A stretch of DNA of 63,955 bases, the filler included. It is 9 parts of 9 records of this genome, joined end to end, with 100 filler letters (N's around TTAATTAATTAA, not from the genome) between each part and the next. Parts side by side here need not be neighbours in the genome. Positions count along the whole stretch, not along the records: positions 58,822 to 63,955 come from SRR31147125_72300; 8 more parts are not named here. The stretch is one strand, 5' to 3'. The notes beneath the pieces were generated by a model, which saw nothing but the letters and a program-made list of their open reading frames with translations, ran no database searches and had not been told where the DNA came from. How positions within the stretch are numbered: the stretch's first letter is position 1; every line of letters starts with the position of its first letter. Both the position numbers and the translations under genes were made by a program. Shown here piece after piece: positions 1,211 to 63,955 of the stretch.

Positions 1211-1870
1211 TTAGCGGTTGAATTCACCTGTGGTCATGGCAATCAGCCCGTCTGCAAGGTCTTCAATACGGATGGTGCCTCCTCTGAGCAGGGCCTGGAT
1301 TGCGGACCCTTGCAGTGCGGCAATGAAGCAGATTCCGGCAGCCCGTCCCGCAGGATTGTCTTGAAACCGTGTCAGGGCGTTTTCAAATGCATTCACAAAT
1401 CGATCATAGGCACTCTGGATGTTGACGATCACCGGAGGCCGAATGCCGCTGAACTCCGCAGAGAGGGATGTCAGTCCGATGATGGAGTCGGGATCGGCAT
1501 GATAGCGCGCCACAAAGATATCCACCAACCCCCGGATCATTCCGGGATAGTCTTCATGGACCCCTTCAAGATAGGTGATGTAAGGCTCCAGTTGAGAGCT
1601 GAGTTCCTTTACCACTTCGTCCAGAATATCCTGCTTGGAGTTAAAGTGGTGAAATACCGCACCGGTGGTCATCTCAATATGATACGCGATATCCTGTATG
1701 GTGGTTTTGTGGTATCCCAACCGGGCAAACAGGTGAATCGCCGCATCCATGATTTTTTTTCGGGTGGCAATTCGCTTGGCCGCTTTTTTATTCAATGGCT
1801 CTTTTTTTGTTTCCGCCTTACGGGGGTGGTCATCCCGTTCCGTTATCCGCTTTTTTCCCGTCTCGTTCAT
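1211..1870 (-). CDS. TetR/AcrR family transcriptional regulator
   Basis: TRKKIMDAAIHLFARLGYHKTTIQDIA...TTGAVFHHFNSKQDIL HTH; overlaps the AOR 3' end. Confidence 0.92.
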   Translation of the reverse strand: MNETGKKRITERDDHPRKAETKKEPLNKKAAKRIATRKKIMDAAIHLFARLGYHKTTIQDIAYHIEMTTGAVFHHFNSKQDILDEVVKELSSQLEPYITYLEGVHEDYPGMIRGLVDIFVARYHADPDSIIGLTSLSAEFSGIRPPVIVNIQSAYDRFVNAFENALTRFQDNPAGRAAGICFIAALQGSAIQALLRGGTIRIEDLADGLIAMTTGEFNR

Positions 1871-3824
1871 GCCTGATCCTTAACCGTTTCAGGGTGTCTT
1901 GAAGCGGAACGCCCGCTTCATTCCATCCTCTGATGTGATAATATCTCTGTTTCATATATAACATATCAGCTTCAGAAATACTATGTCCGGCAGAAGGACC
2001 GTCCGGAAGCGGCTCTTTTACGAATCGTCTGGGGAGTGTGTCGTGTGATGCATCAATTCCTTGCATGAGGTTGAAACGCCTTACCAGATTCCAGATCCGC
2101 TCGCCGGTTTCGTGGATCATTTCCGGAGTGAACGGGCGACCTGTGGCGGCACTGACAAGTTCGGCATAGGTCTCTTCGGAGATGCCGAAACTGCCGAAGT
2201 CGCATTTCACCAATGTGTCGGTACCGGCGGCATAATTTTGGAGCGATGCCACCATGTCGGCCTTGTTCTTGGGGGAGAGGGGATCCAACACCGTTCCTTT
2301 CCAGGGTTCCCCGGCCACTTCATAACCGATGGGAAATCCCCGCTGATGACACCCGCCGCGGTCCGTGGTCATGTAAGCGAGTCCCATACCTGATGCACCT
2401 CTGGGACCCCATCCCGGTGTCTCCAGCCCTTTGGTATGCATGGCAAAGTCAGAAGCGGTGCCACCAATGATTTCAGCCGCTTTTTTCACCCCTTTGGACA
2501 TCAGTCTGCCTAAATCATCCGTTTGGAAGGCCATGGCACGGATCAGGTATTCCGCTCCTTGAACACTACCAAAAGTGAGGGAAATACCTTCAGGCAGGTT
2601 GAACCGATTCAGCATCCCTTTTTCAAAAGCCTCCATGGCAAAGCCGATGACCGATCCCGAGGACATACTGTCCATTCCGAACCGATCACACAGTTTTACC
2701 AGATGGGCAACGGCCCGGATATCGGCAATATCCAGATTGGATCCCATCAGGGCGGCAGACTCATACTCCACAATATCGGTGACGATGCCTTTGTATTTCC
2801 CCAGCCGAACCGCTCCCATTTTGCTGCAACGGATGGGACATCCCATGCAAGCCGATGCACCGAGCCAGAGATGTTTCTTCTGACCCGTATCTGCCAGGTT
2901 GGAGGCATTGGCAAATGTTCCGTTTTTGTAGTTTCGATTGGGGAGCAGACCGGTTTCGTTGGCCCAATCCACGGCAGATGCGGTTCCCGCCACCCGCAAA
3001 GCCTCGACTTCAGCACTCTTTTCAAGTTCTTTTAGGGCCTTTTGATGAGCGGCTTCGAAGGCTTTTGGATCGGCGACCTTCACCCGATGGGTCCCGCGTA
3101 CGGCAATGGCTTTGAGATTCTTGGATCCCATGACCGCACCGGCCCCGCCGCGTCCGGCCTGTCGATTGTATTCACAGCAAATAAGAGCGAATTCGACGCC
3201 GTTTTCACCGGCTTGACCAATGGAAGCGATTTTTACGGTATCGTCCTCAAGGGTTTCTTTTATGGCATGGTTGGCCTCCAGAGCATCCATGCCCCACAAT
3301 TTTGATGCGCTTCGGAGTTCTACGGTGTCGTTATCAATGTGTATCCAGGAAGGTTCTGCTGCTTTTCCGGTGATGACGATTCCGTCGTATCCGGCATATT
3401 TGATCTCCGGGGAGAGAGAGCCGCCGAAATAGCTGTCTAAAAAGATTCCGGTGAGGGGAGACCGGGTCACGACACAGCCTCTCATGGCCGGTGCTATGGT
3501 TCCGGTCAAAGGGCCGGTCATAAACATGAGAGGGATTTCATCAGGGGAATCCGACTGCTTTTCATCTATCTTTTTTTGATCTGTTCCACTCGGTTGATAC
3601 GTTGGTGGCGGCGTTAGTGATGGCGATGGCACCGGCATAGGGGATGATATGGGATTATCGTCGCCGGTCAAGTGATTGTAAAGCAGACGTGCACCAAATC
3701 CTTTCCCGCCGATATAGTCGTTCACAAGGGATTCGGGAAGGGGGACGCGATGGACGGTACCGATGGAGAGATCAATGACGAGCAGTTGTCCCATGTATGG
3801 TGCCGGGGCGATAAAATCATTCAT
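1830..3824 (-). CDS. aor: Aldehyde:ferredoxin oxidoreductase family protein (tungstopterin/4Fe-4S)
   Basis: YIGGKGFG, RSPLTG, GRGGAGAVMGSKNLKAI, CxxCPIRC, EYE and TDRGGCH motifs. The likely start is ATG 3824 after AAGGAG. Confidence 0.92.
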   Translation of the reverse strand: MNDFIAPAPYMGQLLVIDLSIGTVHRVPLPESLVNDYIGGKGFGARLLYNHLTGDDNPISSPMPVPSPSLTPPPTYQPSGTDQKKIDEKQSDSPDEIPLMFMTGPLTGTIAPAMRGCVVTRSPLTGIFLDSYFGGSLSPEIKYAGYDGIVITGKAAEPSWIHIDNDTVELRSASKLWGMDALEANHAIKETLEDDTVKIASIGQAGENGVEFALICCEYNRQAGRGGAGAVMGSKNLKAIAVRGTHRVKVADPKAFEAAHQKALKELEKSAEVEALRVAGTASAVDWANETGLLPNRNYKNGTFANASNLADTGQKKHLWLGASACMGCPIRCSKMGAVRLGKYKGIVTDIVEYESAALMGSNLDIADIRAVAHLVKLCDRFGMDSMSSGSVIGFAMEAFEKGMLNRFNLPEGISLTFGSVQGAEYLIRAMAFQTDDLGRLMSKGVKKAAEIIGGTASDFAMHTKGLETPGWGPRGASGMGLAYMTTDRGGCHQRGFPIGYEVAGEPWKGTVLDPLSPKNKADMVASLQNYAAGTDTLVKCDFGSFGISEETYAELVSAATGRPFTPEMIHETGERIWNLVRRFNLMQGIDASHDTLPRRFVKEPLPDGPSAGHSISEADMLYMKQRYYHIRGWNEAGVPLQDTLKRLRIRHERDGKKADNGTG

Positions 3825-4338
3825 TGGTTTTCTCCTTTGATATCTTTTTCTCATTTGTCGTCGCGATACCGTTTCTTTCCACTTCCACTCTCTCGGCTGC
3901 TTCCAGAGCGCCGGTCGGGCAAGCCTTTATACAAACAGGATCCCCATTGCAAAGATTGCATTTTATAGCCTTTTTTATTTCCGGATCGAGATAAATGAGA
4001 CCCTCTGGACAATATTTAACACACAGGCCGCATCCCACACATTTATCGGGATTGATCAACACCGTACCGTTATCGTCTTTTTCGTATGCATTGGCAGGGC
4101 AGACATTCATGCAATATGCATTTTCGCACTGATTACAGACCACCGGCTTGTGGTAAAGATTTTCTCGCTTATGGATGATTTTCAGTCGAGAAAGTCTTGG
4201 ATTGTATCCCGGAAGTTCTTCAATTGTTGAAGATGTCTTTGTCGACAGAGTCGTCAAAGAGAGTGCCATGGAGCAGGCAAGTTGGCAGATTCCACACCCG
4301 GTGCATTGATCAAAATTGGTTTTTATGAAAATGCCCAT
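3817..4338 (-). CDS. 4Fe-4S dicluster protein (AOR-associated Fe-S subunit)
   Basis: CTGCGICQLAC, CNQCENAYCMNVCP, CVGCGLCVKYCP and CNLCNGDPVCIKACP; overlaps the AOR start. Confidence 0.92.
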   Translation of the reverse strand: MGIFIKTNFDQCTGCGICQLACSMALSLTTLSTKTSSTIEELPGYNPRLSRLKIIHKRENLYHKPVVCNQCENAYCMNVCPANAYEKDDNGTVLINPDKCVGCGLCVKYCPEGLIYLDPEIKKAIKCNLCNGDPVCIKACPTGALEAAERVEVERNGIATTNEKKISKEKTNE

Positions 4339-7410: not shown

Positions 7411-9331
7411 GGCGTATTCATCATCGTTGCCGAAGAAGGGCGTCTTGTTGATGATTGTCTGGCGCAGGAACTCGTCCCCTTCAAAATTGTTACTCACCGC
7501 GGTCAGGACCCGATCCATGGAGAAGTTCTGCTCATCGAAGACATGTTTCTTCAGGGCAGACAGACTGTCGGTGACGGTCCCGAGTCCAGTGCACTGGATA
7601 TAGTTGGTATTGTAGCGGGCCGCTGTCGTAGTAATCGCGACCTTTTTTGATGCAATCATCGATGACGACCGAGAGGAACGGCGCCGGCGCATATTTGGCG
7701 AACATCCGGTCGATGTAGTTGCTGACCCGGATCTTGGTATCGACGATGTAATCGAGCTGACACTTGAAGGCGTTGTACAGTTCTTCGTAGCTCGTGAACC
7801 TTCGCGGATCTCCGGTGGCTGTTCCGGCAACTTTACCGGTGACCGGGTCGATGCCATTGTTCAGGGTGATTTCGAAGACCTTGGGCACATTGAGGTAGCC
7901 GGTCAGGATAAATGCTTCTTTACCGAAAGCGCCGACCTCGATGCAGCCGCTGCAACCCCCTTCACGGGCATCCCGCAAAGTTTTTCCCTGGCGCATCATT
8001 TCAACGACGTAAACATCCGGATTAAAAACCGAAGGATACCCATGCCCCTGGCGGATGACCTTACAGGCCGCCTCAAGGAAACGATCCGGAGTTTTACTGC
8101 TGACATGAACCGAGCTGCCCGGTTGCAGGACGTGCAACTCTTCAACGATTTCAAGCATGATGTAGGAGACTTCGCTGACCCCATCTTTGCCATCCGATGC
8201 AATTCCGCCGATGTTGATGTTGGTGAAGTCGTTGTAGGTTCCGCTCTCACGGGCGGTGATGCCAACCTTGGGCGGTGCCGGGTGGTTGTTGACCTTGACC
8301 CAGAAACAGCTGAGCAGCTCCTTGGCCTGCTCGCGGGTCAGGTTACCCGATTCGATCTCGGCATTGTAGAACGGAGCCAAGTGCTGATCGAAGTGTCCGG
8401 GGTTCATGGCATCCCAGCCGTTTAACTCGGTGATCGTTCCCAAATGCACAAACCAGTACACCTGGATCGCTTCCCAGAAGGTTCGTGGTTTGTGGGCCGG
8501 AACATGACGACAGACTTCGGCGATCTTCAGCAGCTCACTTTTCCGCTGGGAATCACTTTGCTCCTGCGCTTTCTGTTCGGCCAGTTCGGCATGGCGTTCA
8601 GCGAAAAGAATGACGGCGTCACAGGAAATATCCATCGCCTTGAGCTCTTCCAGCTTGTCGGTGGCTTCCGGGTCGTTGAGGAAGTCCAGGTTGTCAATTT
8701 CAGTCTGAATCTCGGCTTTGAAATCGAGCATCCCCTTCTGGTAGAGCTGTGGTCCCATGACCGTGTGGCCCGGAGCGCGCTGCTCCATAAATTCGGTAAA
8801 CAGACCCGCCTCATAGGCCGCGCTCCATTCATCCGGGACGTGACTGAAAATCCGCTCGCGAATGGTTTTTCCCTGCCAGTAGGGAATGACCTCACGCTCG
8901 TATGTGTCGATATCCTCCTGGCTGATGGTATAGCGCTGCTGATCGCGGCTGTTCAGGACATGAAAGTCCTCAACACTGTGGCAGGTCAGTTCCGGGAAGG
9001 TTGGAACCACTTTCGGTGCAGGGCCGCGTTCGCCGACAATCAGCTCATCGTCTCCGAGGTAGAGCGTCTTCTTCTTGCAGTGGTCGAGAAAGTTCATCAG
9101 CCGCAGCACCGGGATCGAATACTTGCCGTAGTTTTCTTTGTAAAAGGCTGTTTCGTGCAGGGCGCGTTCGATCGACAGACTCGGCTCGGTGTCGACGCTC
9201 AGCTTGCGCAGTCTTTGAATGCGGGCATTCATCCCGGGGCCGATGGCTGTGTCGGATGCGTTGTAGAAGTTGCCCTCGGCGCAGGCGGGGCGCTCCGGCG
9301 TATGGTTTTTGCTGTTGATCTGTTCAAACAT
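7411..9331 (-). CDS. hypD: Glycyl radical enzyme, trans-4-hydroxy-L-proline dehydratase-like; frameshift near 7617, truncated at contig end
   Basis: FTEFMEQRAPGHT, ELNGWDA, PAPPKVGIT, ESGTYNDF and SGCIEVGAFGKEA match HypD motifs. The reading continues in another frame as RYNTNYIQCTGLGTVTDSL. Confidence 0.82.
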
Positions 9332-20851: not shown

Positions 20852-23671
20852 CTATTTCAGGAGAAGCATTTTCCGGGTCTCAACATGTCTGCCGGAGGTC
20901 AGTTTGTACATGTAAACCCCGCTAGCCAATCCTGAGGCGTCAAAGCGTTTGCTGTAAGTCCCCATTGATTGATATTCATTAACCAGTGTCATGACACGAT
21001 GACCTGTGATATCATATATATCAAGTTTGACATTCGCATCACGTGTTAACACATAATCTATCGTTGTTACCGGATTAAATGGATTCGGATAATTTTGTTT
21101 TAACTCAAATGCGGCAGGAACGATGTTGTCCAAACCGACTTCCAGCGTATCCAATGCAACGCTTGAATATATACGATATTCACCCGGTGCAAGAGAAATA
21201 CCTGCATTAACGTCACTGACGTTCATTTCATCACGAGTAAAATATTCATACCAGGTGCCGGTATTATGGAATGCCGGTGTAGCAGTTTGGGTGACTACAT
21301 CAAAGTTACCCAGAACTACAACGTTTATCCCATCTTGAGATAGTTTTAAGCGTTTTGTAGCAACATTGTTACCGACATATTGGTCAACTGAATTTGCCGC
21401 AGAAAAAACCGGATAGGTTTTGCGCAGAAAGTTCATTGCCGAAAACAATTCATAAACATCATGACGATCTTCATCATTGAAATAATCCCATCTGATGGGT
21501 TTTTTACCTGTCCGGCCATTATAATCGATGGAATAGTTATAGCCCAATTCACCAAATTGCCAGATCATCTTAGGTCCCGGGATACTCAGAAAAAATACGG
21601 CCGCCAGTTCAACACGATCCAAACCGGTATCTTCAGTTTTAATCTGGTATGTACCACTACCATTGCCATATTCTTTATTTCTATACATCATACGTTCTTC
21701 ATCATGACTTTCCATATAACCGACAAGATGGCGCCAACTCCAGCCGCGAGACCCATGGTAAACACCACCCAGATCGGAAGAACCCAAATATCCCATACTG
21801 GCTTCACAATAATTATGATTTCCATTGCCCCAGAGCATCATACCGTAATTTGAAAGATCGATCTCTTCGCTATTATCAGAGAAGTGTTCAAGGATAATAT
21901 ACGCGCTGGGATCTGTTTCCCATATTTTATCTGCCATACGTTTTAGAATTGCAACACGGGAAGCATCATAGTTGCCCCAATATCCAACATCAGAGCCGGA
22001 ATTCGTTTGAGTAAAACCTTTTGAGAGGTCAAAACGATAGCCGTCTACATGATATTCTTCCAGCCAAAATTTATTGACTCTGTCCAGAACATATTTTGTA
22101 TGGATACTCTCATGATCAGCATCATTAAAAACATTGAAAGGATGTTTAGCTACAGTATTGAACCAGGGATTCGCTGAAGTAGGTGACCCATAAGTACCTT
22201 CGTTGTATAAACGAACCATGGGGTTTTGGCCGGTAGCATGATTGTAAACCACATCCAAGATCACAGCAATGCCATTCTCGTGGCAGGTATTGACAAATTC
22301 TTTGAACTTTTGAGCTGTTCCATAATATTTATCCAAAGCAAAATAAAAAGAAGGATTGTAACCCCAGCTTTCATTACCTTCGAACTCACAGACCGGCATT
22401 AATTCTATTGCTGTAATGCCAAGATCCTTAAAATAATCCATTTTATCGATTAGTGATTGATAAGAATGCTCATATGTAAAATCACGTAATAACAATTCAT
22501 AGACCACTAGATCGTCTTTAGCAGGCTTTTGCCACTCATCATCCGTCCAACTAAAGGCATACGGGGTCGGATCAAAAACACCCACCGGGAAATTGGTTTT
22601 GCCGGCAGGATAAGGCTTTAGATCAGGATAAACTACATCGGAAATATATCTATCGTTCCAGGGATCAAGGATAAGTTCACTGTAGCCATCGGCTACTCTG
22701 ATCTCACCATCCACATAGTACTGAAATCCCTGCAAACTGTCGGGAAGGTCATCCAAAGTAATCCAGAAAACAGTGGAATCAAAATTCCGCACATCTTTTT
22801 TCATCTGGTATGCCGCATCGATCTCCCAATTATTGAAATCACCGATCAAATAGACAAAATTCTTATAGGGTGCAAAGAGTGAAAATGAGATACTGTTCCC
22901 GTCTATCGTGATACCGTCCTGTATACCAGCGGGACGCGCTGCTTCATTGGCTGAATGCACAGCAATACAGACAACATCAGCTGTATCATATTCGCTATCC
23001 TTATCGGCAATGGCATAAATATAATTCATACCTGCTATAAAATCTCCGGAAGCAATATCGTATTCCAGAGTATCGGAATCTTGGTTTGCGGCAACCTGAA
23101 CATCATTAAAGAACAATTTAATATTGTCAGCTGTTTCATTTGTTGCTGCGATCACATTGACCGTACTGGTATCTCCATCATATCTAAATAGCGGTGAACG
23201 TTCCGCAATATTGAATTCAATGCTGTTGGAAGGATTCAAGATCGCCGCTGCAAAAGCGGGTTCGTGCATGGTTATGAAAAGATCTTCACTTTGAATACTT
23301 GCTGTACTGTTCCTGAAAACAAATGCCAATTGGAGGATTTTTTCCGTTTCAGGTGCTGAATAATATTCATGGGGATAGCCGATAACGATCTTATAAAAAT
23401 CTGTAGAAATTCTTGTTAATTTATTCTTTTCTACATTCGTGCTGGGCCAATCCGTCCAGACGTGCTGCCAATCGGTTTCACCCTCAATGATCACACCAGT
23501 ATGAGTGTAGAGATCTCCGGTAAAGCCCATAAGTGCCTGATTACCTTTTGTGGCATCAAAATATACAACAATTGAATCATACTCCGTTGCAAAAGCCGGT
23601 TCAGAATAAACGGCGTTTTGTGCAAATGCAAATACAGCTAAAACGCATAATAGACATGCTATCTTTTTCAT
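20852..23671 (-). CDS. Secreted GH13 alpha-amylase with C-terminal T9SS/FlgD-type sorting domain
   Basis: Signal peptide; IELMPV, WGYNP, LDVVYNH, DGYRFDLSKG, ILEH, ESHDEER; tail QNYPNPFNPVTTI...SGVYMY...KMLLLK. Confidence 0.92.
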   Translation of the reverse strand: MKKIACLLCVLAVFAFAQNAVYSEPAFATEYDSIVVYFDATKGNQALMGFTGDLYTHTGVIIEGETDWQHVWTDWPSTNVEKNKLTRISTDFYKIVIGYPHEYYSAPETEKILQLAFVFRNSTASIQSEDLFITMHEPAFAAAILNPSNSIEFNIAERSPLFRYDGDTSTVNVIAATNETADNIKLFFNDVQVAANQDSDTLEYDIASGDFIAGMNYIYAIADKDSEYDTADVVCIAVHSANEAARPAGIQDGITIDGNSISFSLFAPYKNFVYLIGDFNNWEIDAAYQMKKDVRNFDSTVFWITLDDLPDSLQGFQYYVDGEIRVADGYSELILDPWNDRYISDVVYPDLKPYPAGKTNFPVGVFDPTPYAFSWTDDEWQKPAKDDLVVYELLLRDFTYEHSYQSLIDKMDYFKDLGITAIELMPVCEFEGNESWGYNPSFYFALDKYYGTAQKFKEFVNTCHENGIAVILDVVYNHATGQNPMVRLYNEGTYGSPTSANPWFNTVAKHPFNVFNDADHESIHTKYVLDRVNKFWLEEYHVDGYRFDLSKGFTQTNSGSDVGYWGNYDASRVAILKRMADKIWETDPSAYIILEHFSDNSEEIDLSNYGMMLWGNGNHNYCEASMGYLGSSDLGGVYHGSRGWSWRHLVGYMESHDEERMMYRNKEYGNGSGTYQIKTEDTGLDRVELAAVFFLSIPGPKMIWQFGELGYNYSIDYNGRTGKKPIRWDYFNDEDRHDVYELFSAMNFLRKTYPVFSAANSVDQYVGNNVATKRLKLSQDGINVVVLGNFDVVTQTATPAFHNTGTWYEYFTRDEMNVSDVNAGISLAPGEYRIYSSVALDTLEVGLDNIVPAAFELKQNYPNPFNPVTTIDYVLTRDANVKLDIYDITGHRVMTLVNEYQSMGTYSKRFDASGLASGVYMYKLTSGRHVETRKMLLLK

Positions 23672-43981: not shown

Positions 43982-45292
43982 TCAGCTTAGTTTCAGGCGA
44001 TGATTGCGGGCGATGTGCTCAATTTTCTTTTCCGGCACTCCGGCCTGGCGGGCAAATTCAGGCCACCCGGCCACTGCATCGCGGATGGCGTCGATAATTT
44101 CCAGCGGTTTGGAAATGCTGATCGAATCCCCTACGACAACCAGATCAGAGATGAGGAAATGGTCGCGTTTACCGTTAACGCTCATCTGATGCGAGTTGGT
44201 CCACTTGCCCGCCGGGTTGTGGGAATAGGTGACGTCAAAAGCGGGGGACAATGCCCAGCGCCCCTCCCGATTCATCATAAAAGCGATATTTTTGGTGTGA
44301 TCGTCCTGATTGCGGGCAATGACGTTAAAAAGCATGCGTCGATACTGCTGTATCGCATCCGCCTTGCTCAGGTGCAGCCTACGCATGACTGAGAAAACCT
44401 GCTCATAAGCGTAGGCTCCGGCCCGATTGAAATCGTAATGAGCCAGGCCGCACAATGACTGCAGATGCAGCTTACGGCCGTTGCAACGATCAAAACGTCT
44501 GGTCAGAAAATGCGCCCGCCCTTCCTCTTCGAGGAGCCGGCATTCGCTCATCTCGATCCCGGCGGCCTGCGCCATCAGATGATAGGCATACTCGATACGC
44601 CCGTAGCCTTGCGGCTCACCCAGTTCGATATCCGTAACGCCGTCGAATTTAAGGATCCAGTAGTCATAGCCGTCGGGAACCTCGGCCTGCCCGGAGATCA
44701 CCTTGCCATCTCCGTTCATGGCGATAACCGCCTTCGGCCGTGCCCCTCCTGCCGAAGTCCCAACCCGCAGAATATCGAAAATAGCCTCGGCATTCCCTTT
44801 TTGCGAGCCGTCGAAACCGGTGTCGAGCTGCAGGCGCCGGGACATGACCTCCTGCGCCAGACCGACAAGTTCGGCGATTTCCACCGGGACCGCACGCTCG
44901 AAGCGACGATCCACCGGCGGTGCGAACTCCAGCGCCCCCATGCCGCGGCTTCCCGTATAGCAGAGACGCTCCACCGGACTGAAACTGCCGGCGTCACGGC
45001 CCTGGCGTGTCAGCCAGGCATCGATGATGCTGTTACCGAATTTATCGGGAAGGGCATCCGCCAGCAGGCCGGGGAGTCCCAGGAAGGTCTCCCGGCTGAG
45101 ACTCGGGAACGAAAAGATAGCCTCCCCGCGGGCGTCGTTCAACCCCATGTGCAGCGGGGAAATATCAAGCCCCTTTTCGAGAAAAGCGGGAGCGAATTCA
45201 AAAACCGCGTAACCACGATCCTCCAGCCAGGAGACGGCACCAACCTCGTCCCCCCAGAGTTTGACAACCGCCGTATCGACCTTTTTCACCAT
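43982..45292 (-). CDS. hipA: HipA-family kinase toxin
   Basis: LADALPDKFGN, SAGGARPKA, RRFDR, NQDDHTKN, LSPAFD. Confidence 0.92.
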   Translation of the reverse strand: MVKKVDTAVVKLWGDEVGAVSWLEDRGYAVFEFAPAFLEKGLDISPLHMGLNDARGEAIFSFPSLSRETFLGLPGLLADALPDKFGNSIIDAWLTRQGRDAGSFSPVERLCYTGSRGMGALEFAPPVDRRFERAVPVEIAELVGLAQEVMSRRLQLDTGFDGSQKGNAEAIFDILRVGTSAGGARPKAVIAMNGDGKVISGQAEVPDGYDYWILKFDGVTDIELGEPQGYGRIEYAYHLMAQAAGIEMSECRLLEEEGRAHFLTRRFDRCNGRKLHLQSLCGLAHYDFNRAGAYAYEQVFSVMRRLHLSKADAIQQYRRMLFNVIARNQDDHTKNIAFMMNREGRWALSPAFDVTYSHNPAGKWTNSHQMSVNGKRDHFLISDLVVVGDSISISKPLEIIDAIRDAVAGWPEFARQAGVPEKKIEHIARNHRLKLS

Positions 45293-53700: not shown

Positions 53701-56586
53701 TTATTTTTCCACAATCAGCTTGAGAATGCTTTTCCTCTTCCAGATTAACGCTCCGAACAAGAACCAAAGAACAAAGGTTGTGAGTAGTGCATTGTTGCCA
53801 TATATCGCTACAAGTCCGGTATTGTTACAGTCACTTGGCTCATAATCGTAATCTACTTTGAAATCGTAATTGCCGCAATTGCCACTTTTGTAGTCAACTA
53901 CCGCAAAGAAAATTTGTCCGGTGTTGCTGGCAGGAATTTCCATATCGATATAGTTTCCGCTTCCCTGATAATCAAAGCAGCTATTAGGATTATTGCAATC
54001 ACTAAGGAAGTACATGGCTTCATATTGAATTGAATCTCCAGGTGGGTACAAACTAACTCTCATATCATTTCCAGCTATTGCCTTGATAGCGTAGATGTTG
54101 TCCTGACCTGTTGTCTGGTCACTGGTTGCGCTACAACCATTAGCCCTGTAATCGTTTCCTGCGCCACATGTTGTTCTGCTGTTATAACGTGTGTTCCTTG
54201 TTATAAGATTATTTAGTGCATTTGCGCATTTTCCTGAAATGCAGCTTCCATTATAGCAGGCTTGACTTGATGAACATTTGCTGAAGCATCCGCCACAGTG
54301 ATCCTTATTTGTATTTGGGTCAACGCATTTGTTATCACAGCAAATTTTACCAGCATCGCATCCACCAGCACAGTTGCAATCGCTATCTTGCAAATCCGTT
54401 TTTCCATCGCAATCGTTATCTTTTGTGTCGTCACAAACTTCCGCTTTGCCTGGGTTAATATCTGGATCGCTGTCGTCACAATCAGTACCACCTTGGCATT
54501 GATCGTCATAGAAATAATCGTTATCTGTATCTTTGATTACTTTGTATAGGCAGTTCTTTTCTGTATCGCAGTAATCGCCGGTGCAGTCATTGTGGTCATC
54601 GCAAAGTGAATGATCCTGAGTATTGAAGCATCCATCGGCAGGCGAACATGTATCTACCGTACAAGCGATCGAATCATTGCAGTTAAGTGGAGGGCCATCT
54701 TTGCAGACTCCACCCACGCAAGTTTCTGTTCCATTGCAGAGGTTTCCATCTGCGCAATCCGCATTTGTGACACATTTGGGTGGTTCTACACAGTCTTTAT
54801 CAGGATCACAAATGAGTCCTGAACTACAATTTGTATCATCTGCATTATAGGCACAACCTGAACTTGTTACACAAATGTCATTTGTGCAACCGACACTATC
54901 ATCACATTTGCTGTTATCGGCTGCATGTTGACAGTTAAATTTCGGAGAGCATGTGTCTGTTGTGCAAGGATAGTCATCTTTGCAGTAGTCGTGATTTGGT
55001 GTGGAAACACATCCGTTTGATGCAATCTCGCAAACATCTACAGTACATGGGACGAGATCGTCGCAGAATGTGTTATCTTCTACATTCTGACAATCTTTCT
55101 TAGCATTACATGAATCGATTGTACAATTGATTCCATCATCACATCTTTCATCGTTCGGTTCGTTGACGCAGCCTTTTACTGGGTCGCATGTATCTGCTGT
55201 ACATTTGATGTTATCATTGCAGCTTAGTTTCGTTCCCGGTTGACAACCGCCTGTAATATGGCAAGTCTCTATACCAGTGCATACATCATTGTCCGAGCAT
55301 TCTTCATCAAGAGGAGTATGTACGCATTTATTGGTAGACTCATCGCAGGAATCGCTAGTACAAGTTACTTTGTCGTCGCAATCCGGAGGTGTTCCCTGAG
55401 CGCAATACGCTCCATCGCATGTTTCTTCTCCATTGCACCACAATCCATCATCACATTGTGCATTGGTTTGACATTCTTCTTTTGGAGCGCATCCTGTAGT
55501 TGCATCGTGTTTGGATGATGCAGGATTGCATACATTGTCTCCGGTGCACTGAGAATGGTCAGGCTTGAATTCGCAACCGTTTGCGGCAGTACAGACATCG
55601 TTTGTGCAGCTAAAATCATCTTTACATTGCGAGTTGTCCAAAGTTAATAAACAGCCCAGATCTTTATCACAATATTCTTTTGTGCATGCTTTGCCATCAT
55701 CTGCGCATTTGGTGTTGTCGACTGTATAAACACAACCTTTTTCTGTGATGTCACATACATCACTTGTGCAATCGATTTTATCATCACAAAGTGTATTCTT
55801 GGCTTCATTTACACAACCGGAGAATTCTACACAAGTGTCTTCTGTGCAAGGTATGCCATCTTCGCAATCAGGGGCAATACCAGGTTGGCAACCTTGAACC
55901 TGATCGCAATATTCATTTCCGTTGCAAGGATCTGAATCTGTGCAAAGTGTATGGTTGGTTGTGTGATCGCAAGTGTTTTTTTGCTCATCACAGGTATCAT
56001 CTGTGCAATCTACATTATCGTTGCATGGATTTTCACCATATTGGCAGATTCCGTTGGAGCCACATGTTTCTTTACCATCACAATATAGGCCGTTATTGCA
56101 GTCGGAATCATACTCGCATGTTTTGCCTGTGGATTTATCCTCTTCTTCTTCTGCTACGTTATCTGTATCCCCATCAACTGGAGGTGTCGTTGTATCAGTT
56201 TCGGTTTCCGGTTTATCAAGATCGAAATCGGTTTCAACTTGAGTGTCACCATCGGTCACAGGAGTTGTAGTGTCTCCATCAGGAGTGGTTGTATCCGGGA
56301 CACACATAGTTCCTTCGCATTTATAGCCGTCAGGACAACCACCTTGCATAAAGCATCCATCTTCCTGATTTTCGGATGTTATTGTATCACCATCAAGGTT
56401 TAGTGGTGGTTTGTCGTTAGGATTATATACGTCTTCCTCACAAACTCCATTAATACAAGTTTGACCGGAAGGGCAATCCGAGTTTGAGATACAGTTGATC
56501 TGTTTGATTCCACCGGACTTGTCATCGCAAGCAGACAGAACAAAAATACAAACAAGCAACATAACTATAGAATAATACTTACGCAT
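53701..56586 (-). CDS. Large cysteine-rich repeat surface lipoprotein
   Basis: LSAC lipobox; DGD/Thr-rich linker; many CDDxxxCTxDxC repeats; DCDDSDPDINPGKAEVCD..DNDCDG motif; C-terminal Cys + TM + basic tail. Confidence 0.88.
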   Translation of the reverse strand: MRKYYSIVMLLVCIFVLSACDDKSGGIKQINCISNSDCPSGQTCINGVCEEDVYNPNDKPPLNLDGDTITSENQEDGCFMQGGCPDGYKCEGTMCVPDTTTPDGDTTTPVTDGDTQVETDFDLDKPETETDTTTPPVDGDTDNVAEEEEDKSTGKTCEYDSDCNNGLYCDGKETCGSNGICQYGENPCNDNVDCTDDTCDEQKNTCDHTTNHTLCTDSDPCNGNEYCDQVQGCQPGIAPDCEDGIPCTEDTCVEFSGCVNEAKNTLCDDKIDCTSDVCDITEKGCVYTVDNTKCADDGKACTKEYCDKDLGCLLTLDNSQCKDDFSCTNDVCTAANGCEFKPDHSQCTGDNVCNPASSKHDATTGCAPKEECQTNAQCDDGLWCNGEETCDGAYCAQGTPPDCDDKVTCTSDSCDESTNKCVHTPLDEECSDNDVCTGIETCHITGGCQPGTKLSCNDNIKCTADTCDPVKGCVNEPNDERCDDGINCTIDSCNAKKDCQNVEDNTFCDDLVPCTVDVCEIASNGCVSTPNHDYCKDDYPCTTDTCSPKFNCQHAADNSKCDDSVGCTNDICVTSSGCAYNADDTNCSSGLICDPDKDCVEPPKCVTNADCADGNLCNGTETCVGGVCKDGPPLNCNDSIACTVDTCSPADGCFNTQDHSLCDDHNDCTGDYCDTEKNCLYKVIKDTDNDYFYDDQCQGGTDCDDSDPDINPGKAEVCDDTKDNDCDGKTDLQDSDCNCAGGCDAGKICCDNKCVDPNTNKDHCGGCFSKCSSSQACYNGSCISGKCANALNNLITRNTRYNSRTTCGAGNDYRANGCSATSDQTTGQDNIYAIKAIAGNDMRVSLYPPGDSIQYEAMYFLSDCNNPNSCFDYQGSGNYIDMEIPASNTGQIFFAVVDYKSGNCGNYDFKVDYDYEPSDCNNTGLVAIYGNNALLTTFVLWFLFGALIWKRKSILKLIVEK

Positions 56587-56783
56587 GATCATTTCTCCTG
56601 AAATGACTGAGTCCAAAGAAAAAATATACTCCGTGTACGAGTTCCAAGATGTTAAATATATAATGCTACACGTATATTTGGCAACCTTTTTCTTGTCATT
56701 GGCGAGTTACGAAAAACGAGGGAAATTCTTGATATTGTAAAAGAAATCCTCTTGACGCAATGCGCCAACATAAGTTCCTGTAA

Positions 56784-58821: not shown

Positions 58822-61800
58822 GGGGATCGTCTTGCTCTGTACCTCGATGGAGATCTTGCAACGGAAGACGACGTAACCCCAACGTCCATCCTCTGGAAGC
58901 AGGCAGAGACAACCATGACGATTGGTGGCCAGTCGTCAGGAAAAAGCCATACCTTTGAAGGGGATCTCGATGATGTGCGTGTATACAAAGCGGCTCTGAC
59001 GCAGGAACAAGTCAATGCCGTACGCACTCTCCGTGAGAATGCATCCTGGCGAACCGTGGTGGCGAGTGTGCAGGGAAGTCTCACCGTGAACAACCTTAAA
59101 CCCAACACGGATTACACGTTCGCCGTTGTAGCCCATACTTCCCTGGGAACATCAGATATCGGTATGTGCCCTGTGCAATGCATTCGTCCCTCCACTCACT
59201 TCACTCCCAGTGTTCTCTACTAGTGCACGTACATCTGCAAAAACCATCCTTGCCAATCCATCCTTTGAATTGGATGATGGGACATGGACGGGTATTGGAA
59301 GTGGATTTCACTGGGAGGAGGGGCACAAGCACGCGCTGGCCAACGTTGTGCCCGAGTGCGTAGTGTCATTGATATGTGTTCGTTTACATATTCCTTTCTC
59401 ATGGGAGGCCCTTCATTCAGATAACCAATGAAGATGGAGCAACAGGATCACGAGGGGTGCGGAGTACAGTGTTCCTAAATCAAGGTGCACGAGCAGCTGT
59501 TGTGATCAAGGCCTTTGCAAAGGCCGACGGCGTGGAGGGAGAGGATAATGAGGACGACTATGCACTCGCTTGCGATTTCGAATACACCGATGAATCGACG
59601 GAGACAGGAGGAAGAATAGCCTTTGGTGCAAGTTCCCGTGATTGGGAGGCAAGAACTCTTGTGTTGCACCCCAGGAAACCAATTCTCCGTGTGATCATCA
59701 TGCTTCTCTTCCAGAACCGGCGAGGAACAGTGTACTTTGATCAAGTGGACGTGCGAGAGGATACGGCAATTCCCGTACTCACCACATGTCGTGCCGTGGG
59801 AGATCCACACATTCGCACGTTTGATGGATTGCGATACGATTTCCAGGGGGCTGGAGAGTACTGGCTCGTCAAGTCTCTTCATTCGTCCTTTGCTGTCCAG
59901 GCTCGACTAGGAAAATCGGGAAGTGCATTTTCCATTGTGACGGCTGTGGCAATTTCGGGAACGGGCGGCACACGTATGAGCCTCTCTACCTCCGGAGCGC
60001 ATCCTGTGGTCAAGATTGATGGACTCCTCCAGACCCTGAGCAGCGATACACGTATAACAAGGGCCGATGGTACTATATCCGTCCGTGGAACACTTTGGAC
60101 AGATAATCTGAGTTATGTGTACTACGATGTGGTGGGAATGCAAGTGGAGCTGCGTGTACGGACAGGAACAAGTGGACAACTGTACATTCAAGTATTTGTC
60201 TCGATTCCCGTCGATGCGCCACACAATGCAGTGAATGGTTTGTGTGGAAGTGCAGATGGGAATACGGCAAACGATTTGATGCCTCGAGGAGGGCAAAATG
60301 CTATTTCAATACATGAACGCACCTACGAGAATCTCTACGATTCATTTGGTGATAGCTGGCGGCTTGTGCACGATACAGGGGAGTCCTTGTTTGACTATGA
60401 ACCTGGAGAAACAACGGACACGTTTACAGATCGGGCCTATCCTGGGTCTATGCTCACACCAGAGGATTTCGACGATGGTCAACGCGCAGTGGCGGTGGCG
60501 ATTTGCACAGAGCGAGGCGCTTCATCTAACACCCTTCGCGCGTGTGTCCTTGATCTTCTTGGGACTCTCGACACTACGTTGGCTGTGGGCAATATTGAAT
60601 CAGAGAGCGCTGGAGGTGCGTGTGTGTGGATAGTGTTCTTTGTTGTCTGATGGCTCTGATGGCTCTGATGACTCCGTACACAGAATGTCCGAATCGACGA
60701 ACAGATGTGGGGAAATCATACGTGTGTTATCACACAGGAAATGGGCGGTTCAGGCTTATTCAAGCTACTCTGACGTTGTTGTGGAAGTACCTTGGACGAG
60801 GAGGCTTCTTGCCGAACACTCGAGCCCCAGACGGCTTTCTATACGATTGTGAGTGTGAGTGTAAGCCAGATACCAACAACGAACGCGAAATCTTGGCAAA
60901 TCCCACCATGGAGACATTGGATGGTAATCTTGTTGCGGATTGGCAACAGTATGAAAGTGGATACTCCATCACGGTGCAGGACTTTCGTGGCACAGCATCG
61001 GTTCAGGTTATCGCGGTCACGAATGCAGAACAAACGGATAAGCGTGGTGCAGCACAATTAGTGATGATGGATCGTGAGGATGTATTTCCCTTGCGTGTAT
61101 CGGGATGGTCAGCAGCCCAATTAGTTTCAGGTGTGTCTGACTATCATTATTCCATCTATGTCGATGTGTTCTACAAGGACGGGACCAAATTGTACGGTCA
61201 ACATGCACCTTTTTCCGTGGGTTCGCACGATTGGGAACGTGTCGAGTTCACGATCAAGCCAACTCAACCAATTGACTTTGTTTGGGTGTATTGTCTCTTC
61301 CGAAACCACCAAGGTATTGCCTACTTCAAGAATGTAAGCATGAAGGAAATTGTGAGTCAGGACGACGATGACGACGGTGATGAGGCTGAGGATGACAACA
61401 GGCGATGGCAACGGAGATTGCATACGAGAACGACTAGCAGTGAAGGCAACCTTGTGCAAAATGGATTCTTTCATACTCCCGGCTATGATGGGTCTCAGCC
61501 ACTGCAGCACTGGCGTGCCGTGGGAACTGGTTATGAGCGCTCCATTGAGACACGAGGGAATTCATCGTCTTCGTATTCCGTCACCATGGGAGCTGTTGGG
61601 TTTGAGGATGTGACTGGGGCGACGCAAGAGGTGATACTGGAGCAGACGACTGCGGCTCCATTGTTTGTGAGCGCCTGGAGTCGAGCAGAAGCTGTGTCTG
61701 ACAATGGAGAACCAGAAGACTACTCTGTGTTATTGGATGTGGAGTATGTAACAAGAGAACGAGACTGGTCTTTTTTCTTGCCGTTCTGTTCAGGAAACCA

Positions 61801-63664
61801 CGATTTTGAGCTTGCCAAAGGGATATTCACGCCAATTCTACCGATTCGTACGGTCAATGTGTATCTGACATTCCGTGGGAGGGAGGGAGTGGTCTGGTTC
61901 GATGATATCTGGGTTGGATATGAGGAAGATCCGGAGGCCATCCCTGTCACGACGTCTTCCTCCTCTCTGGATGATGACCCAATCACGACTCTACAGAATC
62001 CGTCTTTCGAAGTGTTAGAAACGGAAGACTTAAGTTTCCCCTCCTATTGGTTGTTCACCTCTACGGGATGTTCTGTGTCCACAACCACCGCACGTACAGG
62101 GTCCAATAGTCTGGCTTGTACAGGAACCGGAATGGTTCAACAGACGATCAGTATTGATCAGGTTTCCATGCCACCTATTCGAATAGGGGTCTTCGGAAAG
62201 GCGGATTCCGTGGAAGGATCACAGGATAGCACATTTAGTCTCAGTGTGAACGTTACATACTCTGATGGAACAAGAGAAGATGCCGTGAATGCGTCGTTCT
62301 GCACCGGAACACATGAGTGGGAGTTTGTCTCCGTCGTTGTGAGTGGCGAGGATGATCGATTCTTGTCCAAGATCACAATTGCCTTGGTATTTCAGGGATC
62401 TGTGGGGCGTGTGTGGTTTGATGATGTCTCTTTTTCTGCGGAGCCATCCTATCGTTTGCCGTTGACCTATCCGTCTGCTCGTCCCGGTGGTTACGGTGAT
62501 GACACAACGGATGCTGATGCACGATCTATTTGGCGTGATCGTGAGGTGTGCCGACGCAATTTGGAAGGGGAATGGGGTTCGGGGAGTTATGTCGCCCCCG
62601 AGCTCAATGCTTCCGAGCCCCATCCGAATGGGGCGGTCACCGATCACCCTACGAACATGACACTTGAGGATTTGTTCGCGGAGGCAACGAATCTCCATTT
62701 CAGGGGAGGACAACGGGCATTAACAGGAGATCTGGCTGGGGCACAAAGTTTGTGGGCCGAGGCACGAGGTTGCTTCACAGCAATCAGCGGTACATCACGG
62801 AGTGCCTCCTTCTGGGGTCTCTCAGGTCTTTCTATGGAGCACTATCCATCTGAGGAATTGTACACAACTCTGGCCTTTGAGGACACCTATCCCTTCCCCG
62901 GCGATGGAGACTACAACGATGCTGTCTTTGCTTTCGAGGCTTCCTCTTGGTTTGATGCCTCTCAGCACCTTGCACAAGTTGATATCACCGTAACAATTTT
63001 GGCACGCGGGAGCATGGCAGATCACGAGCTGGTGTTGCACTTCACGAGACCCATTGCAGGTGGGGCCAGCGTTATCATTTGGCGTTTCGATGAGAACGGG
63101 GTGTTGGAGTCGGTTTATTCGCTGGATACTGTTCCTGGAAACACGTTTACGGAGATCCCCTTGTGTGACAGTTCTGTGAATGCTCTGTCCTCTTTGGTAA
63201 GCAACTCAGATAACGAAACTCTCCTCGAGGGTTATGCAAACGTTTGGACAGATGCGTCACCTCGGGCCGTGGGTCATCGTACAGAAGTATCCATTATTCC
63301 ACACGACCGCACACTTCATCTCAGGGGTCTTCGACTGGAAGGAATGGAATCCACAGACGATTCTCTGTCCCCGCCCTTTGATCCCGTCCTCCGTATTCGA
63401 GGAAGTGGACAAGCCGTTCATGTGCAAGAGGTAACAGGAAACGCTGCGGATGCCTGGGTGGACGATCACCCATATCCATTTGGAATTCTTGTTCCTGGAG
63501 TGTGGAAGTGGCCTCTGGAGGGTGTGCATGTCACATCGGTGTATCCAACCTTTGGTTTTGCATCCACGGGGCATCCTTCATCGGAATGGTGGACCAACAC
63601 GAATCCAGAGTGTGTCACCACGGCGACGGGTGTTGCTGTGTGTCCTGGGGTGTATGATCAATGA
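58822..63664 (+). CDS. Eukaryotic multi-exon gene (5' truncated): LamG-like, FN3, CBM-like repeats, VWD and LruC/DUF4842 domains
   Basis: Four ORFs join in frame via GT-AG introns 59162-59210, 59356-59407 (or 59360-59420) and 60616-60683, with a possible in-frame intron at 60722-60787. Motifs: FEGDLDDVRVY, LKPNTDYTFAV, GDPHIRTFDG, GLCG, TLAFEDTYP..GDGDYND, WKWPLEG. Confidence 0.8.
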
Positions 63665-63673
63665 ACCTTCATT

Positions 63674-63694
63674 TCTCTCTCTCTCTCTCTCTCT
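63674..63694. repeat. (CT)n microsatellite in the intergenic spacer
   Basis: TCTCTCTCTCTCTCTCTCTCT. Confidence 0.85.
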
Positions 63695-63699
63695 TACAA

Positions 63700-63955
63700 A
63701 TGGGCGATAGTCCACCGCCAAGAGACGCAGAGGAAGAGGAGACGGAGGTGATCGTACTTGAGGATGAAGAGGAAGAGGGTGATGAAGTGGAGGAAGAAGG
63801 AGAGGAAGGGGAAGAGACGGAAGACGACTCTCTCCAAGCGTTTCTCGGACACAATGGTGCGTGCGGGTGGGCGAGTCTGTGGGAGGACAGGTGAGTTCAC
63901 CGTTCACTCCAACAGGAGAGGTGTACTGCGTGTGTCTCCATCCGACATTGGGGTT
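63700..63955 (+). CDS. AAMP/Sqt1-like WD40 protein, 5' part, with intron 63857-63915
   Basis: Spliced product MGDSPPPRDAEEEETEVIVLEDEEEE...EDDSLQAFLGHNGEVYCVCLHPT, resembling the acidic N-terminus and first WD repeat of AAMP/Sqt1. Donor GTGCGT, acceptor CAG. Confidence 0.75.

Follow-up and report, generated by a model that had tools for sequence, protein, structure and literature searches.

How does a run of long reading frames that change frame at every break come to lie among dense bacterial genes? The question is raised by the last contig (positions 58822-63955, 5134 nt, GC content 0.513) of a 63,955-base window, the whole stretch of DNA analysed here, in which nine contigs with GC contents from 0.38 to 0.54 are joined by N...TTAATTAATTAA...N spacers; this contig reaches the window end. 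It carries four long open reading frames (ORFs) in succession on the + strand, with the frame shifting at every break, and all its long ORFs lie on that one strand. We find that the contig is very probably a nuclear genome fragment of a compact-genome microbial eukaryote, mis-binned with bacterial contigs, and that it holds four U2-type spliceosomal introns. An initial annotation, made from the letters alone, had proposed a eukaryotic contig with tiny spliceosomal introns hidden among bacterial contigs. The core of that proposal is supported by two junctions seen in a public sequencing run, at introns 2 and 4, by GTRYGT donors paired with CAG ends, and by the restored frame; the bacterial company is confirmed by the proteins encoded on the other eight contigs.

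In the gene structure that we propose, gene 1, of which the contig has the 3' 4.8 kb, would encode a large protein that is secreted or lies at the surface; gene 2 would begin 35 bases past the gene 1 stop and specify an acidic N-terminus and then a repeat of WD40 type. The four U2-type introns (49, 65, 68 and 59 nt), with a strongly constrained 5' splice site and all ending in CAG, would be excised by the spliceosome to yield continuous reading frames.

Frame breaks and splice signals

The segments that separate the four ORFs, and a further one inside gene 2, were delimited as follows, counting the breaks in order along the contig.

59162-59210, + strand: intron 1, 49 nt, GTATGT..CTCACTTCACTCCCAG, phase 1; predicted, the frame being restored by its removal
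59356-59420, + strand: intron 2, 65 nt, GTGCGT..CCCTTCATTCAG, phase 0; joined form observed
60616-60683, + strand: intron 3, 68 nt, GTGCGT..ATGACTCCGTACACAG, phase 1; predicted, restores the frame; in the inter-domain linker after the VWD region
63857-63915, + strand: intron 4, 59 nt, GTGCGT..GTTCACTCCAACAG, phase 1; joined form observed

All four segments have GT at the 5' end and AG at the 3' end, all four end in CAG, and the donor is GTGCGT at three breaks and GTATGT at one. The initial annotation had listed introns 1, 3 and 4, whose coordinates, ends, lengths and junction peptides all agree with the sequence. Its statement that each ORF break is repaired held for these three, but a fourth break, from 59355 to 59421, had gone unlisted. 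Its further statement that the repair by GT-AG segments is exact is true of the listed segments, but by itself such repair is no more than chance provides, as the controls show.

These controls were neighbouring same-strand ORF pairs in the other eight contigs, with a GT..AG segment of 40-80 nt allowed between them. Some GT..AG repair was possible in 44 of 59 pairs with ORFs of at least 100 aa, and breaks 1, 2 and 3 offer 6, 23 and 12 frame-restoring GT..AG pairs, respectively. A GTRYGT donor, by comparison, was available in 0/59 of the same pairs, against GTRYGT..CAG at 4/4 breaks. When shorter ORFs were admitted, the donor appeared in 3 of 221 pairs (ORFs of at least 60 aa) and 14 of 748 pairs (at least 40 aa), and the full GTRYGT..CAG combination in 1/221 and 6/748. 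Intron 1 is the sole option with a GTRYGT donor among the 6 candidates at its break. The + strand of the contig has four copies of GTGCGT itself, of which three are at breaks, while the eight other contigs together (53.8 kb) hold two on the + and three on the - strand. The extended donor at the four breaks, unlike GT-AG repairability, thus exceeds chance.

Branch-like motifs sit 7-25 nt from the AG of the four introns, a number too small for statistics: CTCAC/TTCAC in introns 1 and 4, CTCAT and TTCAT in intron 2, and CTGAT (three times) and ATGAC in intron 3. Of the branch candidates that had been noted near the acceptors, CTCAC and TTCAC are therefore present in introns 1 and 4, but CTGAC is not, intron 3 having CTGAT instead. 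Group II introns were considered and dropped, the segments being far too short.

Joined and unjoined forms in public sequencing runs

Parts of the contig are present as Logan contigs in two public runs of a single study and sample: X1, with 22 million letters, and X2, with 915 million. Neither is recorded as RNA; the library type of X1 is not on record, and the run is shown as 'DNA?', which is a guess. Identity to the window is at least 99% for all 9 contigs of each run. One X1 contig links 59355 straight to 59421, skipping 65 nt with GT..AG ends and with 59 letters on the shorter side of the joint. A second X1 contig, at a depth of 12.2, leaves out 59 nt at 63855/63915, the shorter side of its joint having 33 letters; read one base rightward, the cut has GT..AG ends and is exactly 63857-63915. 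Introns 2 and 4 are thus removed exactly in X1 contigs. An X2 contig runs unbroken over 59247-59404 and represents unspliced intron 2, and the X1 pieces within exon 4 contain no joints. Programmed ribosomal bypass was dropped as an explanation of the breaks, since it does not predict joined nucleic-acid forms. Of the four introns, the pieces and depth bins of X1 cover introns 2 and 4 and those of X2 intron 2; introns 1 and 3 would be spliced as well.

The exon sequence of X1 has no letters that differ from the window apart from one extra G, which X2 also has. It lies behind 59319 in both X1 (depth 4.7) and X2 (depth 3.6), in the following run.

59320-59323, + strand: G run, one base shorter in the window than in the X1 and X2 contigs

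The short run is likely an assembly error at a homopolymer, or else a variant. Without this G, the final 36 nt of exon 2 are read in the wrong frame in the window, which is why the true intron 2 fails to restore the frame in the window as written. Adding the G brings the end of exon 2 to phase 0; the four exons of gene 1 then add up to 4662 nt, one open 1553-aa frame with a terminal stop only. Two other placements of intron 2, 59356-59407 and 59360-59420, are artefacts of the missing G and are ruled out by the observed junction. The resulting exons of gene 1 are these.

58822..59161, + strand: exon 1, 5'-cut at the contig end and open from the first base; C-terminal part of Laminin_G_3 and most of fn3
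59211..59355, + strand: exon 2, 145 nt in the window and 146 nt with the extra G; end of fn3, linker and first third of carbohydrate-binding-module-like (CBM-like) module 1
59421..60615, + strand: exon 3; rest of CBM-like module 1 (to ~59762), VWD (~59787-60293) and a Cys-containing extension
60684..63664, + strand: exon 4, including the TGA stop; Cys-rich linker, CBM-like modules 2-4, linker region and LruC/DUF4842 (~62864-63592)

What kind of library X1 represents decides how these joints are to be read. Although X2 is about 40 times the size of X1, word depth over the gene is about 5-12 in X1 and 0.5-5 in X2. Because of this deeper coverage from a much smaller run, and because two precise GT..AG deletions occur in otherwise genome-identical sequence, we infer that X1 is RNA or complementary DNA (cDNA). 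The initial annotation had named transcripts that retain the introns as the observation that would speak against it; the opposite is seen, introns 2 and 4 being joined in X1, provided that X1 is the transcript-derived run we take it to be. If X1 were instead a DNA run, as its 'DNA?' listing would have it, the contig would still be eukaryotic and its introns spliceosomal, but the joined forms would exist as DNA, as intron-less copies due to presence/absence polymorphism or to a retro-copy. That label, however, is a guess about a library not on record. The X1 exons are identical to the window and the extra G is common to X1 and X2, which indicates the same strain; two independent introns are both precisely absent from X1; and X1 is the deeper run in spite of its size. 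We therefore regard intron-less DNA copies as an improbable source of the joined forms.

Domain structure of gene 1 and the breaks within it

The domain order of gene 1 is LamG, fn3, a CBM-like module, VWD, three more CBM-like modules and LruC. Among Pfam models, Laminin_G_3 scores 42.4 bits (cut-off 27.6) and fn3 26.4 bits (cut-off 25). VWD (PF00094) reaches 57.4 bits against 22.9 over profile positions 1-155 of 156, so the whole model is matched above threshold, and its homologues in a word-based search are 25-37% identical. The C-terminal region matches LruC_dom (TIGR04456, NCBIfam; 62 bits, cut-off 36) and DUF4842 (PF16130, Pfam; 26.8 bits, cut-off 22), in each case partially and in two stretches. 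No Pfam model matches the repeated 155-aa module in the gene 1 protein. A profile of this module was built from 31 segments of database homologues, none of them from contig 58822-63955, and hmmsearch located four copies.

59237-59762, + strand: 155-aa CBM-like module 1, spliced residues 123-276
60875-61360, + strand: 155-aa CBM-like module 2, spliced residues 625-786
61439-61927, + strand: 155-aa CBM-like module 3, spliced residues 813-975
62015-62443, + strand: 155-aa CBM-like module 4, spliced residues 1005-1147

Module 1 straddles intron 2: exon 2 matches profile positions 7-43, and exon 3 positions 48-162. When the segment is spliced out, the profile is matched in a single stretch, at 91-99 bits, which rises to 102.8 bits if the sequence is corrected and the junction placed as observed. 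Frameshift models that retain the segment reach 88-89 bits, and in them the match falls into two parts with an insertion of ~25 residues; for exon 3 by itself the score is 86.5 bits. No domain residues fall in the segment at break 2, and its removal restores a contiguous domain. At intron 1, spliced and frameshift models score alike (for P0003, as an example, 94.0 against 92-96 bits), and BLAST high-scoring segment pairs to eight homologues cross the junction.

These results bear on the reading of a bacterial contig whose gene 1 has several frameshifts, as a pseudogene or through misassembly, and whose GT..AG ends are coincidental. It would draw on the ease of chance GT-AG repair in the control ORF breaks, on the real 1-nt discrepancy at 59320-59323 and on the nearest named single-domain homologues, which are mostly bacterial. 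It does not account for joined forms that drop exactly 65 and 59 nt at GT..AG, for GTRYGT..CAG at all four breaks with none among the 59 controls, or for a segment at break 2 that is free of domain residues. Nor would it lead one to expect that the frame of gene 1 shifts three times in a span of 1.5 kb and holds steady over the next 3 kb. We give a frameshifted bacterial gene next to no credence.

An AlphaFold (AF2) model of module 2, made from 28 aligned sequences, has a predicted local distance difference test score (pLDDT) of 96.6 and a predicted template modelling score (pTM) of 0.90. Searched with Foldseek, this model returned CBM70 (4d0q) at an E of 2.7e-8 and a template modelling score (TM) of 0.67, CBM16 entries 2zex, 3oeb and 3oea at TM 0.68-0.69, and also CBM4 and CBM22. 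The predicted structure thus suggests that the 155-aa module has the beta-sandwich fold common to CBM70, CBM16, CBM4 and CBM22. Sequence identity between these structures and the module is 8-18%, and carbohydrate binding by the module is putative. The gene 1 product would be a large secreted or surface protein, and its predicted modules make a putative glycan-binding adhesion or matrix protein the most likely function. The 155-aa module is also a candidate for a new domain family entry.

Gene 2 and the spacer

Gene 2 follows on the same strand and is cut by the window end.

63665..63699, + strand: spacer of 35 nt from the gene 1 stop to the gene 2 ATG, mostly a CT dinucleotide run
63700..63856, + strand: gene 2 exon 1, with ATG and acidic N-terminal stretch, ending ..DDSLQAFLGHN + G
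63916..63955, + strand: gene 2 exon 2, cut by the window end; reads GHNGEVYCVCLHPTLG after splicing

The part of gene 2 in the window amounts to 52 + 13 residues, an acidic stretch and then DDSLQAFLGHN-G-EVYCVCLHPTLG. The spacing GH-x3-V marks the start of a WD40-type repeat, and the spliced gene 2 matches it. These 65 residues matched 0 Pfam families, and the first exon gave no usable Atlas match and found 0 PDB sequences at E up to 10. The initial annotation likened the downstream gene to AAMP/Sqt1, a eukaryotic WD40 chaperone that binds the N-terminus of ribosomal protein uL16 and functions in assembling the 60S ribosomal subunit. We tentatively presume that the pattern ..DDS...F.GH-x3-V.CV..HP corresponds to the start of the first WD40 blade of human AAMP and yeast Sqt1, which would share with gene 2 both the acidic N-terminus and the spacing across the splice junction; the comparison is of 65 residues of gene 2, with no database match.

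An X2 contig spans 63616-63766 and so crosses the spacer. X1 contigs stop and start inside the CT-repeat spacer (63664-63702), which is masked as a repeat. Separately, in one X1 record 63955 is followed by 11 other letters and then, turning back, by 63918, which may be an assembly hairpin at the contig end.

The tight spacing of the two genes, together with a gene 1 that is a mosaic of domain types otherwise mostly bacterial, could also suit a giant virus or another eukaryote-associated element with introns of spliceosomal type. The 5.1 kb hold no viral hallmark, no search against viral collections having been made, and the second gene resembles a cellular WD40 protein. We consider a viral or similar source very improbable, and favour a cellular nuclear genome.

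Relatives of the contig and its genes

Searched exhaustively with exon 4, a set of 1.84 billion representatives yielded 1226 proteins at E up to 0.001. The six best of the 1226 are two EukProt entries (a Gefionella okellyi transcript and 'Clim_evm51s146', which we take to be from Corallochytrium), one Paenibacillus S-layer-homology protein and three unnamed proteins. Relatives of the module occur in bacteria, in archaeal metagenome-assembled genomes and in at least two eukaryotes, but the best matches are only ~30% identical and do not place the organism. Word-based searches gave matches at the level of the module only, the repeat being matched over 10-20% of the query at 32-47% identity, and on some of the relatives Pfam reports weak CBM_4_9_1 tails only. 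The C-terminal 403 residues found no match in the word-based protein search, and the C-terminal part of gene 1 had no usable Atlas match. Exon 4 searched against metagenome contigs and genome contigs yielded 597 and 582 pattern matches, none of them a relative.

One protein alone has a matching domain order. P0077 (ENA, 2301 aa) shares with gene 1 the succession of a Cys-rich linker (DGF.Y.CEC), three CBM-like modules and LruC, at 28% identity over 917 columns; it differs in that Pfam finds no VWD, LamG or fn3 in it. It begins with a signal-like peptide at the N-terminus and is encoded by an uninterrupted 2301-aa ORF on a 7087-nt contig. Its last 10 residues look to us like a translated Illumina sequencing adapter. 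Because its uninterrupted ORF ends in this adapter-like peptide, P0077 is probably a transcript assembly with an untrimmed adapter. P0072 (Gefionella okellyi) and P0074 ('Clim_evm51s146') each have six CBM-like modules of the family repeated in gene 1 but, unlike gene 1, are without the LruC part. At ~26-33% identity to gene 1, P0072, P0074 and P0077 are family members, not close kin.

No close relative and no related locus was found in NCBI and EukProt-derived libraries or among metagenome and genome contigs, and for this reason the organism is not placeable. Rfam gave 0 matches on the contig at E up to 0.1. Nucleomorphs are AT-rich, and a nucleomorph origin was dropped on composition, the contig having 51% GC.

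The other contigs of the window

The eight other contigs (window 1-58721) are filled with dense ORFs in bacterial code, and of 12 long ORFs taken from them for testing, 11 match Pfam families of ordinary prokaryotic type. Among the products there are aldehyde:ferredoxin oxidoreductase (AFOR), a glycyl-radical enzyme like pyruvate formate-lyase (PFL), OmpA, an alpha-amylase with a type IX secretion system (T9SS) sorting tail, HipA and a PolX-type polymerase. Those with coordinates are listed here.

1830-3854: AFOR, an anaerobe-type enzyme
7532-9331: PFL-like enzyme, an anaerobe-type enzyme
20852-23671: T9SS-tailed amylase
43982-45292: HipA toxin kinase

A 971-aa ORF at 53701-56616 (- strand), on a neighbouring bacterial contig, matches no Pfam family at E up to 1e-5. 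AFOR and the PFL-like enzyme belong to oxygen-sensitive families, which is compatible with an anoxic community and silent on the eukaryote's own habitat, thought likely by the initial annotation to be the same anoxic one. In its GC spread and mixed gene content, the bin appears heterogeneous even apart from the eukaryotic contig.

Discussion

Several observations weigh against a eukaryotic nuclear fragment with four spliced introns. Should X1, guessed to be DNA, truly be so, splicing would be unproven, and each joint is supported by a single short contig of an assembly rather than by raw reads. Junction evidence is confined to introns 2 and 4; at the intron 1 junction the scores do not separate the models, and homology upstream of the junction is not convincing. 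The CBM-like module, VWD and LruC have named homologues that are mostly bacterial, at only 25-45% identity, and no marker gene assigns the contig to any eukaryotic group. Finally, a gap of 35 nt between same-strand genes is unusually short for a eukaryote. Our high confidence in the eukaryotic reading takes these points into account.

The closest parallel that we found for the splice sites is in an alga. Outside chromosome 2, Ostreococcus lucimarinus is reported to have short introns with an atypical, strongly conserved 5' splice site, GTGCGTG (Irimia & Roy, 2008; PMC2483917). The present contig is alike in that three of its four donors are GTGCGT, two of them continuing with G, and in its closely packed genes and few, short introns. 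It is unlike O. lucimarinus in that the branch motif reported there (GACTGACG/ACTGAC; PMC2483917) is absent from these four introns, and four introns are too few to define a splice-site consensus. With 51% GC and no close NCBI or EukProt protein match, the contig shows no sign of Ostreococcus or a sequenced relative.

The contig could come from a protist lineage without a sequenced relative that combines near-abutting genes (with the 35-nt spacer), very short introns, an Ostreococcus-like, extremely constrained GTGCGT site and a large surface protein made of module types known mostly from bacteria, namely the CBM-like module, which lacks annotation, a VWD of bacterial type and LruC. We put this forward tentatively and think it rather unlikely; if true, it would point to bacterial donors of the domains, with introns gained afterwards.

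It is a known nuisance that eukaryotic contigs end up in the bins of prokaryotic metagenome-assembled genomes. The same picture is found here, one short contig amid dense bacterial ORFs on contigs that differ widely in GC content (0.38-0.54), and the contig is an ordinary mis-binned eukaryotic contig; the only unusual point is that splicing is visible directly in a public run of the same sample, as we read X1. For the bin, the consequence is practical: it is contaminated, and the contig is to be taken out of the bacterial genome, with its likely one-base error at 59320-59323 noted. Taken alone, 5 kb of an unplaced eukaryote carry limited weight. The contig nevertheless offers a small, clean example of compact eukaryotic gene structure from a community that also yields anaerobe-type bacterial enzymes. 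If the organism can be extended and placed, it would open the questions of how 5' splice sites become constrained in intron-poor genomes and whether a mosaic glycan-binding protein arose from bacterial modules.

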